IMG/VR virus record: IMGVR_UViG_2671180847_000008
Source of the DNA: a virus
Lineage: Duplodnaviria; Heunggongvirae; Uroviricota; Caudoviricetes
Strand: one strand, 5' to 3'
DNA length: 46,714 nucleotides
Under the pieces are notes generated by a model. It was not told the DNA's origin, made no database searches, and worked only from the letters and a program-made list of their open reading frames with translations. This document shows, in pieces, positions 2,591-15,886 of the stretch. The translations under genes were made by a program, and so were the position numbers. The first letter of the stretch is position 1, and each line of letters starts with the position of its first letter.

Positions 2591-3163
2591 TCATAATTCT
2601 GTGCTGGTGGCAGGAATTAATTTCTGCCAGATAGCGGAAACATATTTTGCCTGATGACGGGCATCAGCCAGGGCGTTGTGCCGTTCGCCATCGAAAGGCA
2701 TGTCCATTTTGGGGTCGAATCCGATGGAACGCCCAAGCGTAACGATCGTGCGTACATCGTGGTCATTCCAGTACGCCCACGGGCAGATTTGTCCTGCTCG
2801 CTCATAAGCTCCACGTAAAATTACGTTGTCGAAGGTGGCCCCGTTACCCCAGACTTTTAAATATTTCGTATTGTCTGCGTGCCGGTTAATGAAATGGTTT
2901 AGTTCTGAGAGAGCATCGCTGATCGACAAAGTATCATCAATACAGATTGCAGCTCGCGCTTCAGGGCTTTGTTTCAACCACCACAGGATGGTATCGCCGT
3001 CAGGTGTAGCTCCTTGCTTCATAGCACTGTCCAGGCTGACAACCGCATAAAATTCTTGTCCGATGTCTCCGGTTTCTGGAGTGAAGAACACCGCGCCAAT
3101 GGAAACGATCGGTGCATCCTTATTTTTCCCCATCGTCTCAAGGTCGATCATTAAGTTGTTCAT
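2591..3163 (-). CDS. DnaQ-like 3'-5' exonuclease
   Basis: Start MNNLMIDLETMG with RBS GGAGG; DLET and HNAL-D motifs of DEDDh exonucleases; start overlaps the upstream stop (TGATG). Confidence 0.8.
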   Translation of the reverse strand: MNNLMIDLETMGKNKDAPIVSIGAVFFTPETGDIGQEFYAVVSLDSAMKQGATPDGDTILWWLKQSPEARAAICIDDTLSISDALSELNHFINRHADNTKYLKVWGNGATFDNVILRGAYERAGQICPWAYWNDHDVRTIVTLGRSIGFDPKMDMPFDGERHNALADARHQAKYVSAIWQKLIPATSTEL

Positions 3164-3885
3164 CACTTCACCTCCTGCGGCGGTTCCGGTAGCGGCATCC
3201 AATTGATTACATCGCATTCAGGGATGCTGATATCATCACCAAGCCATCCTTGACCTTCAGACCAGCATTGCACGTAATACCCGTATTCTGTGTTCACTAC
3301 GCACCACTGCCCGTCATCCGGCATTCGCTCACTACAGCTTATCCAACTATCCGGAGTTACCGGAGAGTTGCCATTTACATCGAAGTTTGGCTCTGCGTCC
3401 TGAACCAGGAGGATGTAACCATTCTTGGCAGTATCAAGTTCTAACGCCTCGGTGACGGTGCCGAAATAGCGATTACCTAAATCAGCATCACAAGTGCTTA
3501 CATCAATGGAAACTTCCATGCCTTCGATTAATTCTGGCAAGTTGTAAGTTTGGTTTACAGGTTGGCCTCCCTGAAGCATGGCGGCGCGGTGACACCAGAT
3601 AATCCAGCCAAGCGCCATATCCCATGCCATGTATTCTCTATCACCATTTTTTGCCCTGCGGCGATCTACAGATTCCCCGAAACGCTTCTCCATAAATAAT
3701 TCATAGGCTGCCCGTTCATCCGATACTGCTGCCAGCGATGCCAGTGCAATTTTAAATGCGGTAAGTATGTTGTTAACCACACCTATTTCGAATGCTATTT
3801 CACTACATACAAACGATTTATCGTCTATTATCGACTCAATTCCGGTAATCGTGTTCTGTAACCATTCTTTGGTAAGAGTATTCAT
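3163..3885 (-). CDS. Early-left hypothetical protein with DUF551-like C-terminus
   Basis: 240-aa ORF; RBS AAGGTG; C-terminal W-rich motif DGQWCVV...WMPLPEPP. Confidence 0.7.
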   Translation of the reverse strand: MNTLTKEWLQNTITGIESIIDDKSFVCSEIAFEIGVVNNILTAFKIALASLAAVSDERAAYELFMEKRFGESVDRRRAKNGDREYMAWDMALGWIIWCHRAAMLQGGQPVNQTYNLPELIEGMEVSIDVSTCDADLGNRYFGTVTEALELDTAKNGYILLVQDAEPNFDVNGNSPVTPDSWISCSERMPDDGQWCVVNTEYGYYVQCWSEGQGWLGDDISIPECDVINWMPLPEPPQEVK

Positions 3886-6980: not shown

Positions 6981-7343
6981 TTAACGACCTGCTGCGCGGA
7001 GTTTTCCGTCAGGCTCACCGGCAAGAGTCAGTAATTGTCCCTGGTCTTCCTGCAGAATAGTCAGGCGACCACCGCGATTGACATACATCGGCGTTTCGGT
7101 GGTGTCTTCTTCGGAAATTTTCCCGCGGTTAGTCGGACGAACATATGAGAGTTTGTGTTTTATTTTCACACGGTTCTCATCAAACGGTTCGATTTCCAGG
7201 TTGAGCGAGACCTTACCTTTGGTTTTCGTGTTCATCACACCGGAAGCGACTTCACTGAGAACTGCGCCGATTTTGGTTTCAAATACGCCGCCGTCCAGCT
7301 CCCCGATAAATTCCTGCACGTTGGTACTGCGTTCGCTAGCCAT
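6981..7343 (-). CDS. YfdP-like early protein; start at MASERSTNV
   Basis: ATG at 7343 with RBS AGGAG 7 nt upstream; the 77 codons of track ORF upstream of this start are R/S/C-rich and look non-coding. Confidence 0.65.
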   Translation of the reverse strand: MASERSTNVQEFIGELDGGVFETKIGAVLSEVASGVMNTKTKGKVSLNLEIEPFDENRVKIKHKLSYVRPTNRGKISEEDTTETPMYVNRGGRLTILQEDQGQLLTLAGEPDGKLRAAGR

Positions 7344-7950
7344 TTTGCTGCTCCTCATCATATCGACCCTGCAAGGTCGGTTGGTTTCTCCACAAAACAG
7401 AGAAGAACACCTGCGGTGACTGCCGCCCGGATGGATTGGGTTATGAGCCCGTCGTCCGGTGATGCTCTTCTCTGTTTTGTAAAAAGAGCGGTACCAGCCG
7501 GAAGCAAGTGTACAAACTGGTACCGCCAAAGCAGTGGCTGTTGTGGTGGGGTTGTCACTCAGGCGTATGGTCAACCTGACAATCCGGTGTCCTCAACGGG
7601 GAAAGAGTAACCCCGCCATACTTACCGCCGCGCCATTTCGCGGATTACCACAACGCTGAGAGCACTTAGCCAGTTACGGCACCACACTTTGTCGCGGTTC
7701 CATAAATGCCCTCATCGTTGCACCCTGGTCTCTTCCCAGGCGTCAAACCGGATCGCCGCGCTGGTTAGGCGTCTTATCAGCATCATCATTGACTTGCACA
7801 TTCCGGCTACCTGGTTTGTTTGCCCGAGCAGGAGTGGATTGTCCCCTTTAACGTCCCCAGACCGCTAACGACGCATGTGCCATACGCCGTGTTACAACCA
7901 AATTTTGTTAGTACCTTGTTTGTAGGTCTGGAAAGAAAGATAAAATGAAG

Positions 7951-7989
7951 TTGCGCATTATGCAAGTGTTTTTATTGCGAGATATGCAA
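7951..7989. promoter_or_regulatory. Candidate OL/pL: two 15-bp operator-like sites
   Basis: TTGCGCATTATGCAA (7951-7965) and TTGCGAGATATGCAA (7975-7989) share the TTGC-N7-GCAA pattern with the site in the cI-cro intergenic region; they overlap a possible leftward promoter. Confidence 0.45.
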
Positions 7990-8000
7990 TTTGGTGGGTA

Positions 8001-8023
8001 ATGAAAAGCCACCTTCTGGTGGC
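8001..8023 (-). terminator. Terminator of the repressor transcript
   Basis: GCCACC-TTCT-GGTGGC hairpin followed on the minus strand by TTTTCAT, just past the repressor stop. Confidence 0.6.
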
Positions 8024-8045
8024 TAATTGATGTTGAGGTAGGAGG

Positions 8046-8738
8046 TTAATTGTGTCGCTTAAGGGTTTGTGACTGACTGATTAAGACCTTTCCAAAGACC
8101 ATAAACCGGTGTTCGTTTTCGCTGGTAATTCCCCATTCGCGGTAAATCTGATTATCAGAAATTACCAGCAGTTTATCAGGTATCATTTGCAGTCGTTTGA
8201 CGTAAATTTTATCATCAAAACCAAATACATATATACCATCCCCATCAAACTGATTGATACTGATATCAACGAAGATGAGATCTCCTGGCTCAATGGTTGG
8301 ACACATACTGTCCCCACGAACGTTGATAACTTTAATGTGATTTGCTGGTCGTCCACCAAACATCGATACAGCATTATCAGTTCTGTATTCAATGGCATGA
8401 ATCACATCAATGACATCACCGCCCTGGATAAGGCCATTTCCCGCACTGGCACTGACATCCAGCATTTCAATACGGAATACATCCTTCACCTGCGCAACAT
8501 CCTCACTAATACTGTTTTTACATACAGTATTACTTTTGAAGTCTGAGGTAAAGAGATCAGCAATATCAACACCTAAGCTCCTGGCAATATTACTCAGGGC
8601 TTGTTCAGTGAATTGTTTCTGCTTACCTGTTTCCAGGCGTGAGATATTCGCCGCATCCACTCCTATTGCTTCAGCGAGATCGGCGATTTTCATGTTCTTC
8701 GCCTGGCGAAGTTGTCTGACTCGATTTCCTATGTTCAT
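8046..8738 (-). CDS. cI: CI-like prophage repressor (HTH plus S24/LexA-like peptidase domain)
   Basis: N-terminal HTH (KIADLAEAIGVDAANISRLETG); C-terminal GDSM Ser and VKRL Lys autocleavage motifs; ATG with almost no leader, as for lambda cI. Confidence 0.9.
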   Translation of the reverse strand: MNIGNRVRQLRQAKNMKIADLAEAIGVDAANISRLETGKQKQFTEQALSNIARSLGVDIADLFTSDFKSNTVCKNSISEDVAQVKDVFRIEMLDVSASAGNGLIQGGDVIDVIHAIEYRTDNAVSMFGGRPANHIKVINVRGDSMCPTIEPGDLIFVDISINQFDGDGIYVFGFDDKIYVKRLQMIPDKLLVISDNQIYREWGITSENEHRFMVFGKVLISQSQTLKRHN

Positions 8739-8744
8739 GCGTTT

Positions 8745-8821
8745 ATTACATTTCTTTATTGCGCGTTAAGCAAATCAACTTGCGCAAAATATTTGCGTGA
8801 AATAATATGCTCATCACGCAA
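8745..8821. promoter_or_regulatory. Divergent immunity promoters with operator-like repeats (candidate pRM/pR/OR)
   Basis: Rightward TTGCGC-N17-TAATAT (8780-8808) ahead of cro; leftward TTGCTT-N17-TGTAAT (8773-8745) ahead of cI; TTGCGCGTTAAGCAA (8759-8773) plus inverted TTGCGTGA...TCACGCAA (8793-8821). Confidence 0.55.
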
Positions 8822-8835
8822 TATGTGGAGGTCAT

Positions 8836-9096
8836 ATGCAATCACCATTACGGAATGTGCGTAAGGCGCACGGATTTACTTTGCAGCATGTTGCTGCGGG
8901 CGTTCAGGTCAATCCAGCGACGCTGAGTCGTATTGAAAGACTGGAACAAATTCCATCTATCGATCTTGCAGAACGTCTGGCCAATTTTTTTAAGGGTGAA
9001 ATCAGCGAAATGCAGATTCTTTATCCGGCACGTTTTCAATCTAGCCAAAACCAGAATGGGTTTAAACCACAGGAACAGGAGGTAAGCCGTGGGTAA
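8836..9096 (+). CDS. cro: Cro-like HTH repressor
   Basis: ATG with RBS GGAGG; HTH FTLQHVAAGVQVNPATLSRIE; divergent from cI. Confidence 0.85.
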   Translation: MQSPLRNVRKAHGFTLQHVAAGVQVNPATLSRIERLEQIPSIDLAERLANFFKGEISEMQILYPARFQSSQNQNGFKPQEQEVSRG

Positions 9097-9640
9097 GCAT
9101 CACTGGAAAGTGGAAAAACAGCCTGAGTGGTACGTGAAAGCTGTCAGAAAAACTATCGCGGCGTTGCCGGGGGGTTACGCTGAAGCTGCTGACTGGCTGG
9201 ATGTAACAGAGAACGCTTTATTCAACCGCCTTCGTGCAGATGGCGATCAGATTTTCCCGCTGGGATGGGCAATGGTTTTACAGCGCGCGGCTGGCACTCA
9301 CTACATTGCGGATGCTGTCGCACAGTCTGCTGGTGGGGTGTTCGTATCGCTTCCTGAAATTGAGGAAGTAGAGAACGCCGATATAAACCAGCGCCTGCTG
9401 GAAGTCATCGAACAGATCGGGAATTACTCAAAGCAGATTCGTTCGGCAATCGAAGATGGGGTCGTGGAGCCACACGAGCAGACAGCAATTAATGATGAGT
9501 TGTATCTGTCAATTTCGAAGCTCCAGGAACATGCAGCACTGGTCTACAAAATCTTCTGCGCTCCAGAAAAGAGTGACGCCCGCGAGTGTGCAGCTCCGGG
9601 CGTCGTGGCGTTTTGTGTCTGTGGAGAAACTAACGCATGA
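9089..9640 (+). CDS. Early regulatory protein of uncertain function, in the position of cII
   Basis: GTG start with RBS AGGAGG 8 nt upstream; 183 aa; immediately downstream of cro. Confidence 0.6.
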   Translation: MGKHHWKVEKQPEWYVKAVRKTIAALPGGYAEAADWLDVTENALFNRLRADGDQIFPLGWAMVLQRAAGTHYIADAVAQSAGGVFVSLPEIEEVENADINQRLLEVIEQIGNYSKQIRSAIEDGVVEPHEQTAINDELYLSISKLQEHAALVYKIFCAPEKSDARECAAPGVVAFCVCGETNA

Positions 9641-9785
9641 ACAGTTTAACGGCAAATAACCGTTTGTCGCAACAGCTGGTGGTCAGTGTCGCTGAACACC
9701 TGTTGTTACGGCATGAATGCAGATTACCAAATCACCTGGCTGTAAGTAACCACAGAGAACTTTACCTGACTGTGGGGGGCGAGTT

Positions 9786-9965
9786 GTGCAGGAACTTAAC
9801 CGCTGGTTTCGTGACGGAAGAGGGCTTTATGTCCATGTTATTCGTTGGGAACCAGAAACACAGCGCGTTATCTATCTTCGCAAAGACTACCCGCATGAGT
9901 GCTTTAGTCCTTTGTGGAAATTCAGGCGTGATTTTGTTGAGTGTGAAGGACCACCAGCACATTGA
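9786..9965 (+). CDS. Candidate small ORF (59 aa) in a different frame from the 383-aa track ORF
   Basis: GTG start preceded by a G-rich RBS; protein-like translation (NRWFRDGRGLYVHVIRWEPETQRVIYLRKDYPHECFSPLWKFRRDFVECEGPPAH); followed by a terminator. Confidence 0.3.
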   Translation: MQELNRWFRDGRGLYVHVIRWEPETQRVIYLRKDYPHECFSPLWKFRRDFVECEGPPAH

Positions 9966-10050
9966 TTCTGCCATTCCGGGACGTTACACTGTTCAGGCAC
10001 CTTATAAAACGGGTGCCGGGCGTGGAAACCCGGAATTCACCAAAGCGCAC

Positions 10051-10074
10051 AACCGCGCTCTTGCGGTTTTTTTG
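10051..10074 (+). terminator. Rho-independent terminator inside the early-right operon (tR1-like)
   Basis: AACCGC-GCTCTT-GCGGTT hairpin followed by TTTTTTT. Confidence 0.65.
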
Positions 10075-10242
10075 TGTCATGAGCAGCATTACGCCCAAAT
10101 TATGGTGGGGCGTGCAGGGCCAACTTCGGTTGGGCCGGGTTCTTTGGTGACCGGTATTTCCACCCCTGTACGTCTCACCACCAATAAGGTCGTGGAAAGC
10201 CTTGGTGGTGAGTTATTAAAAATCACCAAAGAGGCTGCCATC

Positions 10243-10788
10243 ATGGCTACGATCCCAACCCTCACTCAACCTGAAATTGCCATCGTTGATGGTCAGGCTG
10301 TTACTTCATCCCTGGCTGTTGCCAACTTCTTCTCCAAACGTCATGACGATGTACTGAAAAAGATCCGCACGCTTGAATGCTCAGCATCATTCACTGCCCG
10401 CAATTTTTCGGTGAGTGATTACACTGATTGCACAGGTCGCAAACTTCCTTGCTACCAAATAACCCGCGACGGCTTTGCGTTTCTTGCTATGGGTTTCACG
10501 GGTAAACGTGCTGCCCAGTTCAAAGAGGCATACATCAATGCCTTTAACCAGATGGAGAAACAGCTTTCAAATCCCTCTGTACTGAGCGACGTTGCACATA
10601 ACGCCAGCGTTCTCTATTCCTACATTTCATCAATTCATCAGGTCTGGCTGCAGCAGCTTTATCCTATGTTGGCAAAAGCCGAATCTCCGCTGGCTGTTAG
10701 CTTGTATGACTATATTAATGATGCTTCGGCACTGGCCTGCCTCATAAATTTGTCGCTGAACCCTTCAGAGGTAAGGGGGCGCAAATGA
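10243..10788 (+). CDS. Rha-family phage regulatory protein (antirepressor-like)
   Basis: ATG with RBS AAAGAGG; Rha-domain-like N-terminus (TIPTLTQPEIAIVDGQAVTSSLAVANFFSKRHDDVLKKIR); the upstream 200 codons of the track ORF are judged non-coding. Confidence 0.75.
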   Translation: MATIPTLTQPEIAIVDGQAVTSSLAVANFFSKRHDDVLKKIRTLECSASFTARNFSVSDYTDCTGRKLPCYQITRDGFAFLAMGFTGKRAAQFKEAYINAFNQMEKQLSNPSVLSDVAHNASVLYSYISSIHQVWLQQLYPMLAKAESPLAVSLYDYINDASALACLINLSLNPSEVRGRK

Positions 10789-15503: not shown

Positions 15504-15520
15504 TTTTGTGGAGAAAGTTG

Positions 15521-15886
15521 ATGCGTGATATTCAAATGGTTCTTGAACGTTGGGGGGCATGGGTGGCAAATAATCACGAGGATGTCACTTGGTCGTCTAT
15601 TGCTGCAGGATTTAAAGGACTAATCCCTTCAAAAGTAAAATCCCGCCCGCAATGTTGTGACGATGACGCGATGATCATTTGTGGATGCATGGCTCGCCTG
15701 AAAAAGAACAACAGCGATTTGCACGATTTATTAGTGGATTATTATGTAGGTGGTATGACGTTTATGGCGCTTGCCCGTAAACATGGGCGTTCTGATTGCT
15801 GGGTTGGGCGTTTATTGCAAAAGGCTGAAGGTGTAGTTGATGGCATGTTAATGATGTTAGAAATTGAGCTAGAGATGGATCGTTAG
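15521..15886 (+). CDS. quuD: Late-gene antiterminator Q (QuuD-like)
   Basis: [22 protein letters not shown]...[16 protein letters not shown] recalled as the DLP12 QuuD family; RBS GGAG. Confidence 0.8.

Follow-up and report, generated by a model that had tools for sequence, protein, structure and literature searches.

The early-left leader of a lambdoid prophage: a non-coding region related to the dicBF leader of Qin, with a widespread three-way junction and a tRNA-fMet-like loop

We report that in a 46,714-nucleotide (nt) stretch of viral DNA (IMG/VR record IMGVR_UViG_2671180847_000008), hereafter referred to as the window, the interval between the presumed leftward promoter pL and the gene yfdP is non-coding and in part homologous to the dicF region of Escherichia coli K-12. 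By gene content the window represents a prophage of the lambdoid type. With moderate confidence we interpret the interval as a multi-domain non-coding 5' leader of a repressor-controlled early-left (pL-type) operon, a relative of the dicBF untranslated region (UTR) of the Qin prophage, which would act as a processed attenuator that gives rise to small RNAs (sRNAs). A three-way junction at the yfdP-proximal end of this leader appears to be a phage RNA motif that is very common and has not been described.

A first-pass annotation, made by a model from the sequence alone, had described a gap of about 600 bases without genes between pL and yfdP. This description stands: among ~1000 near-identical copies in E. 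coli (99-100% identity) the interval carries no RefSeq annotation, its open reading frames (ORFs) are not conserved, and yfdP has its ATG at 7343. The same annotation had called the region GC-rich with inverted repeats, in agreement with a GC content of 0.53-0.555 over positions 7300-7900 compared with 0.38-0.45 in the flanks, and with inverted repeats having arms of 25 nt and 10 nt. Folding of the 602-nt minus-strand leader RNA against shuffles gave z = -4.6 (plus strand, z = -3.75). Its suggestion of a regulatory RNA is retained insofar as covarying helices and the dicF-region homology indicate a structured RNA/sRNA region, while the more specific proposal of an HK022 put-type antiterminator is not.

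Occurrence and conservation

Of the 5426 complete E. coli genomes, 4738 have some part of the interval, taken as 702 bp, and 999 have 80% of it or more. It also occurs in the phages mEp460, cdtI, 2H10 and Ayreon, in many Stx2c phages and in PhiR phages, and partially in SfII, SfV, SfIV and ST64B. The sequence downstream of the left operator OL is conserved also where the immunity region differs, and the leader is therefore part of the left operon rather than of the immunity module. Alignment with mEp460 and SfII revealed a nearly invariant 190-nt block adjoining yfdP and, upstream of it, a variable insert framed by GUUGUGG...CCACAAC; the leader is a mosaic in which modules are exchanged among phages at sharp boundaries. 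The region upstream of yfdP in K-12 CPS-53 is rearranged and contains neither leader nor junction.

Homology to the dicBF leader

The domain that we refer to as M3a (for coordinates of this and other features see Table 1) is identical at 105 of its 115 positions (91%) to NC_000913.3 1649251-1649365, just upstream of K-12 dicF. It is followed by a hairpin with a U-run, which constitutes a predicted intrinsic terminator at 7526-7481(-) with a 10-bp GC-rich stem and then UCUUUUU. This hairpin aligns with the 3' half of K-12 DicF (UUUGGCGGUAYCAGUUU...CCGCYCUUUUU), with 27 of the 41 aligned positions being identical. Among the junction instances, 135 of 154 have a hairpin and T-run directly 5' of the junction; the stems covary or differ, and the loops are CU-rich. 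That the DicF-like hairpin pairs in cis with the conserved GGAGAAAC linker was considered and rejected (mean z ~0 over 38 variants).

The dicBF operon has a long UTR that contains dicF, and the 5' end of DicF is made by RNase E; the 53-nt DicF ends at the intrinsic terminator, and the 72-nt DicF is made by RNase III (PMC5069750). In the K-12 sequence the end of the 72-nt form falls 19 nt past the terminator, within the 5' arm of a 20-bp helix (GUGAAUUUUGUGAUGUGGUG / CACUGCAUCACAAAAUUCAU) that closes the next domain. That domain, GUGAUGUGGUGAAUGCGGCUGAGCGCACGCGG...CACCUGGAGGCACCAGGCACUGCAUCAC, lies between dicF and dicB (L157 3438-3595) and is a second domain, STnc100-like and without annotation in K-12; the 20-bp helix that closes it is thus the one holding the reported RNase III-made end of the 72-nt DicF.

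The leader of the window and that of Qin occupy the same place on the phage map, in a repressor-controlled operon corresponding to pL. They share, in the same order, the 115-nt upstream domain (91% identical), the hairpin UUUGGCGG...CCGC(C/U)CUUUUU and a 20-bp helix before the first downstream gene, and in both a rho-independent-type hairpin with a U-run forms the 3' end of the module. They differ in that the window lacks the DicF 5' end (~12-19 nt), has a different hairpin top and gives no Rfam DicF score; in that the module after the terminator is a tRNA-fMet-like junction in the window but the STnc100-like domain in K-12; and in that the window has no upstream ydfABC genes, its leader beginning directly at pL. 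On the basis of position and partial sequence, M3a and the DicF-like hairpin are homologous to the dicF-region modules, not formal members of their families. Judged by sequence comparison, the leader as a whole is a variant of the dicBF-type UTR.

A three-way junction downstream of the terminator

The U-run of the DicF-like terminator is followed after 2 nt by P1, the outer helix of a three-way junction. A covariance model of the junction (R1) gave exactly one match in the window, at 7391-7480, with 107.8 bits on the minus strand compared with 40.3 bits on the plus strand, and no match in Qin, CPS-53 or HK022. Covariation was assessed for 17 diverse sequences, using 500 shuffles and slid controls: pairing holds in 95.6% of the cells, with 8 pairs substituted on both sides, values reached by 0 of the 500 shuffles, and the slid controls pair at only 37-57%. 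G-U pairs occur only on the leader strand, and for the junction alone the minimum free energy corresponds to z = -8.25. The analysis of structure and covariation that the first-pass annotation had proposed therefore came out in favour of a structured RNA, in the junction with these 8 double-sided pair changes and in M3a with 4 compensatory pairs (see below).

The junction is present in 2490 of the 5426 complete E. coli genomes (46%), with up to five copies in each, and these copies are always unannotated or covered by a 'hypothetical protein'. The first gene downstream varies and is YfdP-like, YfdR-like or RdgC-like, as read from the N-terminal sequences; in the late-leader types it looks like a holin gene. 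The orientation relative to transcription is constant in the early-left and the late contexts.

In principle the interval could be conserved as DNA, either to link mosaic modules in recombination or to bind a protein, with RNA folding as a by-product. The swapping of modules at sharp boundaries would agree with this, and the invariant 20-mer described below could be a binding site. The compensatory changes preserve helices, though, the G-U pairs are confined to the transcribed strand, and the element keeps its orientation with respect to transcription both in early-left and in late operons, and we consider this explanation highly improbable.

In overall plan the junction resembles the C4 RNA of P1/P7 and the CI RNA of P4, in that the Rfam C4 consensus likewise has a long outer stem and two inner hairpins in a phage operon leader. 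C4 and CI RNAs are excised from leaders by RNase P. The Rfam C4 model (RF01695, CL00128), however, has no match in the leader, and the true C4 of the window is located elsewhere, at 10098-10185.

Between the junction and yfdP lies a hairpin proximal to the ribosome-binding site (RBS), a position at which (U/G)GCAG-loop hairpins turn up repeatedly on varying stems. Loops of the (U/G)GCAG or UGCA type also form P3 of many junction variants; UGCA is self-complementary, and a loop-loop contact between the RBS-proximal hairpin and P3 is conceivable.

The junction is thus found in about half of the complete E. coli genomes and some part of the leader in most of them, all of it without annotation.

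The tRNA-fMet-like apical loop

The apical loop on P2 is invariant. Fourteen of its nucleotides, CGGGCUCAUAACCC (7451-7438), are identical to the anticodon stem-loop of tRNA-fMet (metZ ...gtCGGGCTCATAACCCgaagg...), and the identity spans three G-C pairs and the loop CUCAUAA, with CAU at 7445-7443. Three G-C pairs in the anticodon stem mark initiator tRNAs. Natural variants of the loop have UA or UC instead of AA at positions 37/38, or G-U instead of the closing G-C pair, and CUCAU is unchanged. The flanks GA and AAUCC are also invariant, yet they differ from tRNA-fMet, and the mimicry may therefore be partial. The acceptor, D and T arms are absent from the leader, only the 14-nt anticodon arm being common to both. 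Alternatively, the loop could be a tRNA-derived relic put to other use. That it is the attP remnant of an element integrating into tRNA-fMet was rejected; the identity ends at the anticodon stem and does not reach the 3' end of the tRNA.

Scanning with the 20-nt loop retrieved more than 120 IMG/VR contigs, further viral and metagenome contigs, and 28 species genomes, ~24 of which are Enterobacterales from 15 genera. The loop is carried by at least five sequence-unrelated scaffolds. One has a P1 of 6 bp and is found in Klebsiella phages right after tRNA-Arg or tRNA-Asn, between Q and the lysis genes; another lies upstream of a holin-looking gene in other enterobacterial phages, with a terminator directly 5' of it; a third is located next to isrJ, the isrJ sRNA (72.6 bits) being ~120 nt upstream at L169 956-1026(+); and a fourth is a human-gut metagenome type. 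In Acidobacteriaceae/peat-bog contigs the loop caps a perfect 11+9-bp hairpin (L141 2553-2621(-); L198, L204, L207), positioned between small ORFs and beside an ORF resembling a glucosaminidase-type endolysin. This distribution suggests that the loop motif is not confined to enterobacterial phages. No Rfam family matched any of the loop scaffolds, a full-text search of the literature for the loop sequence found nothing, and complements of the loop, as putative trans targets, are no commoner in the window than expected by chance.

The loop stays invariant on changing scaffolds, keeps its orientation relative to transcription and stands at the start of early-left as well as late transcripts. These three features argue that it is recognised by a universal partner, one that reads the anticodon arm of initiator tRNA. 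Readers of the tRNA-fMet anticodon arm include the 30S P site with IF3, methionyl-tRNA synthetase (MetRS) and anticodon nucleases, e.g. enteric VapC. The thrS operator of E. coli is likewise an anticodon-arm mimic in the 5' leader of an mRNA. Tentatively, the junction may represent a new class of phage RNA, made at the start of early-left or late transcripts, that mimics the initiator-tRNA anticodon arm, either as a decoy or sensor (of a VapC-type nuclease or MetRS) or as a ligand of the 30S P site/IF3 that loads or holds ribosomes. If the mimicry is true, the recurrence from phages of Enterobacterales to prophage-like regions of Acidobacteriaceae would reflect selection for the universal tRNA-fMet arm. 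The loop is a 14-nt copy of a universal translation signal that stays invariant amid changing surroundings, and if it binds the ribosome, the synthetase or an anticodon nuclease, it would represent a new phage route to translation initiation or to countering tRNA-directed defence.

Exchangeable domains upstream of the terminator

All M3 variants have the closing stem GUUGUGG(U)/(A)CCACAAC in common. For M3a the RNAalifold consensus contains 4 compensatory pairs, and five variants support four helices. The apical hairpin varies in sequence and keeps a CU-rich loop, which is UUACUCUUU in the window and CGACUCCUU or UCUUCCUU in other variants. In SfII and ST64B the M3 slot is occupied by an STnc100-like domain (39.5 and 35.1 bits, respectively; gathering score 47), with the same closing stem. 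STnc100 and PasD are prophage sRNAs, and leaders adjoining Q and the lysis genes contain them too (bioRxiv 10.64898/2026.05.13.724894), and Hfq-dependent stability has been shown for Pas sRNAs (PMC8550237). M3a differs from these in being another insert in the same frame, and the STnc100 model (RF02076) has no match in the window, M3a included.

At three further loci, L110, L092 and L104, the M3 slot matches the tRNA model (43.9, 40 and 29.5 bits), with acceptor, D and T arms. In these tRNA-like RNAs (L110 1077-1203(-), L092 1800-1925(+) and L104 4364-4488(-)) an insert of 64-68 nt replaces the anticodon arm, and the inserts of L104 and L110 contain a CAU-loop hairpin; ARAGORN calls none of the three. 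In the window ARAGORN predicted 0 tRNA genes and the Rfam tRNA model had no match in the leader; on 36 related loci ARAGORN predicted none except two ordinary tRNA genes in L147. The Rfam scan that had been proposed in the first-pass annotation, run on the whole window at the gathering score and permissively on 2 kb and on 381 nt, gave no match in the leader, which is accordingly placed in no family.

Domain M2, upstream of M3a, has arms resembling those of P1 in the junction, and the M3 closing stem shares its first 4 nt with the 3' end of M2. At other loci M2-like arms enclose larger inserts with T-arm-like hairpins.

Coding potential of the leader

The statement in the first-pass annotation that the interval has no minus-strand ORF of 60 amino acids (aa) or more is literally wrong, since there is a mechanical minus-strand ORF of 66 aa with a GTG start (7358-7558) and since the yfdP frame is open upstream, in frame, to a TTG at 7574. 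On the plus strand an ORF of 151 aa (7155-7610) matches phrog_3651 (E = 1.7e-93), and the 66-aa ORF matches phrog_33599 (E = 6e-18). The plus-strand ORF is partly antisense to yfdP. In addition, a candidate upstream ORF (uORF) of 11 codons starts with GUG (7393-7391) at the 3' foot of P1 and ends with UGA (7360-7358) just 5' of, and partly overlapping, the Shine-Dalgarno sequence (SD) of yfdP.

Missed small proteins, i.e. the 66-aa or a 77-aa minus-strand ORF, the 151-aa antisense ORF or the short uORF, would account for the PHROG matches and for the hypothetical proteins that some phage records annotate in the interval, and the NUG-GAG-AAA at the foot of P1 often has a stop near the main start codon. 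The PHROG families are, however, explained by near-identical DNA, and the frames break outside that group. The 130 distinct variants compared for the conserved core have no consistently open frame in common; the open spans range from 81 to >1000 nt and are in differing frames. Insert lengths differ by non-multiples of 3, as do the junction lengths (90 to 121 nt), no Pfam family matches the leader ORFs, and the covariation of the helices fits RNA rather than codons. We therefore treat the leader ORFs as artefacts of conserved non-coding DNA, given that the frames break on divergence, that Pfam is negative and that the helices covary, and we give almost no weight to small proteins as the reason for conservation. 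Both phrog_3651 and phrog_33599 appear to group false gene predictions made on conserved DNA that codes for RNA.

A conserved short coding gene, which the first-pass annotation had named as evidence against a regulatory RNA, did not clearly emerge, as the NUG-GAG-AAA uORF is present inconsistently only. Its length varies from 3 to 46 codons among the other variants, in some of them it forms one frame with the main ORF, and in two the start is lost, being ACG. In several others the stop overlaps the main start codon (AUGA). The evidence that the 11-codon uORF is real is weak, and we retain it as a candidate.

Antitermination

In pointing to HK022 the first-pass annotation had also noted the absence of an N-like gene near the immunity region; Pfam scans of 20 ORFs, 10 of them surrounding that region and 10 more extending to the lysis genes, revealed no N family. 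The putL site of HK022 starts at pL +1 and comprises ~70 nt with two stem-loops (PMC9378689). A covariance model (R2) was built from seven putL sequences and used with search filters off and E<=10. It recovered HK022 putL (99 bits) and, as an independent control, putR just after cro (36.7 bits, E = 1e-7), and had no match in 7344-8045. For a paired put site downstream of pR the best match in the window (9639-9711(+), 10.3 bits, E = 0.84) was not significant. Searching with putL using blastn retrieved 21 phage records (HK022, HK75, O276, HK639, phiEt88 and others), and there were no SfV/ST64B/mEp460-type phages among them. The HK022 put identity of the leader was therefore rejected. The two are alike as cis-encoded RNAs heading early operons of an N-less lambdoid phage, and the repressor of this phage type resembles HK022 cI according to a note in the ST64B record. 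They differ in position, put being at pL +1 and the conserved modules of the leader 220-550 nt downstream, and the conserved put sequence GUCGAACGGCGCGAC...UAAACCAUGCGUCGG...GGCGGGYUCAGG has no sequence or structure similarity to the leader.

The ST64B- and SfII-type leaders (L006 ~3100-3190(-), L002, L105, L144) start with another conserved module, CAUAGAGCAGCGAACAGGCAGGACGCC...CCGGAUGAUUCGCUG. It has short strings in common with HK022 putL, yet it does not match the put model.

More generally, a processive antiterminator made of RNA, be it a put homologue or another RNA such as the junction, could bind RNA polymerase and let it pass terminators further downstream without N; put RNA promotes read-through by contacting the zinc-binding domain of the polymerase beta' subunit. 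This would be in keeping with the absence of an N-like gene in the ORFs scanned and with the junction heading both types of antitermination-dependent operon, the early-left and the late (downstream of Q and tRNA genes), always on the transcribed strand; in the Klebsiella phages the junction is upstream of a strong terminator. In the E. coli/Salmonella type and in some late-leader types, however, the junction lies immediately downstream of a terminator, and because of this position it cannot aid passage of its own upstream terminator. Late operons already have Q, the put model that recovered both HK022 sites yielded nothing in this leader, and blastn with putL yielded nothing of this phage type. 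Antitermination by RNA is thus unlikely in our view, and an effect of the junction on downstream terminators is possible.

A lambda-type nut site, in which a boxB hairpin follows boxA within ~10 nt and an N protein is required, was also considered. Near the upstream end of M2 lies a hairpin with the loop GAAGAGA, the first five bases of which (GAAGA) match the lambda nutL boxB loop. The loop is constant and the stem varies (CCUGG/CCAGG, CCUCG/CGAGG, CCCGG/CCGGG), as might be expected of a boxB whose N-like protein is encoded at another site of the prophage and has escaped recognition. No boxA adjoins it on reading the flanks, no small arginine-rich ORF follows, the hairpin is present in only ~35 of 155 junction-bearing leaders, and no N-like protein was found with Pfam, which makes a nut-type site very unlikely.

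Proposed mechanism

Returning to the leader as a dicBF-like attenuator, we envisage that leftward transcription from pL, once repression is lifted, would produce an RNA folding into the GAAGAGA hairpin, M2, M3a and the DicF-like hairpin. The DicF-like terminator would stop a fraction of the transcripts, thereby attenuating yfdP, yfdQ, yfdR and beyond, and would set the 3' end of the leader RNA. Like DicF, this RNA might be trimmed by host RNases into small stable RNAs, the CU-rich loops of which are plausible seeds that could pair with ribosome-binding sites of target mRNAs. Transcripts that read through would enter the 90-nt junction, where P1 is a candidate RNase III-type processing site, since it has the same position and the same 20-bp length as the K-12 helix cut for the 72-nt DicF. 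Cleavage there would free the sRNA portion and determine where the yfdP mRNA begins, how stable it is and how it is translated. A conserved host component able to recognise the initiator anticodon arm presumably binds to the tip of the junction.

A DicF-type leader would link the N-less lambdoid prophages (SfV, SfII, ST64B, mEp460, cdtI and the Stx2c phages) to the only studied example, dicBF of Qin. On this view one expects prophage sRNAs that form a family and differ in interchangeable cargo domains, and the N-less expression of the 7-kb left operon would become experimentally approachable.

Several points weigh against this interpretation. Cleavage of P1 by RNase III is argued from position and helix length only. 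The 5' end of DicF, which holds the seed that pairs with xylR, is absent from the window, the first 12 positions having no counterpart in the alignment (up to ~19 nt by eye), and the Rfam DicF model (RF00039, gathering 48 bits) does not match the window hairpin even in a search of 381 nt at E<=10; the hairpin-terminators of L104, L046 and L092 score 29 bits with this model, which is below the threshold. The 3' region of DicF pairs with the ftsZ RBS; for a duplex with ftsZ the DicF-like hairpin gave z = +1.3 against shuffles, in a crude test where the K-12 DicF control was itself weak (z = -1.2). Moreover, if the terminator is efficient the 7-kb left operon still needs antitermination, for which no mechanism was identified, and this interpretation does not account for the 5' third of the leader (7745-7945).

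Locus layout and neighbouring RNA genes

Leftward from the leader the gene order is yfdP, yfdQ (DUF2303) and a yfdR-like 5'-deoxynucleotidase gene. Two exact operator-like repeats, TTGCG-N5-TGCAA, mark OL, and the motif recurs with one mismatch at 8759-8773, between cI and cro; these repeats and the cro-side copy support OL and pL where the first-pass annotation had placed them. We presume that pL fires leftward from OL. A scan for consensus promoters found no minus-strand promoter at OL. A further exact copy of TTGCG-N5-TGCAA is located at 10428-10442(-), inside the Rha/antirepressor region and distant from cI.

Table 1. Features of the early-left leader and of the surrounding locus in the window.
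Feature	Position	Strand	Basis or remark
Untranslated early-left leader, ~600 nt	7344-7945	-	no conserved ORF, composition, folding
Hairpin CCUGG-GAAGAGA-CCAGG	7724-7740	-	invariant 7-nt loop, covarying stems
Domain M2, ~17-bp irregular long stem CAACGAUGAGGGCAUUU / AAGUGCUCUCAGCGUUG around a short insert	7651-7720	-	read from sequence
Domain M3a, 115-nt multi-helix, closed by GUUGUGG/CCACAAC	7540-7654	-	dicF-region homology
DicF-like module: UUUGGCGGUACCAG, 19-nt loop, CUGGUACCGC, then UCUUUUU	7481-7530	-	inverted repeat, DicF alignment
Three-way junction, 90 nt	7391-7480	-	covariance model, covariation, folding
P1, 20 bp	7480-7461 with 7411-7392	-	
P2, 5 bp	7459-7455 with 7431-7427	-	
P3, variable	7426-7423 with 7416-7413	-	
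Invariant apical loop ACGGGCUCAUAACCCAAUCC on P2	7433-7452	-	most conserved 20 nt of leader
Linker GGAGAAACCAAC and candidate 11-codon uORF (GUG-GAG-AAA...)	7358-7393	-	
RBS-proximal hairpin CGACCU-UGCA-GGGUCG	7364-7379	-	followed by SD GAGGAG and yfdP ATG
yfdP	ATG 7343, SD GAGGAG 7356-7351	-	
OL, two exact operator-like repeats TTGCG-N5-TGCAA	7951-7965 and 7975-7989		
Terminator hairpin of cI	8007-8024		3' of cI
cI-like repressor (HTH + Peptidase_S24)	8046-8738	-	Pfam scan of ORFs
cro	8836-9096	+	
CII/CP76-family gene	9089-9640	+	
Q antiterminator (PF06530)	15506-15886		

Rfam also predicted isrK (9997-10073(+), 67.9 bits), followed directly by the C4 antisense RNA (10098-10185(+), 83.6 bits), both inside a mechanical ORF (9637-10788) upstream of a Rha/antirepressor-type gene. 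This pair therefore indicates a P1/P7 immI-like RNA immunity module in the right operon of the prophage.

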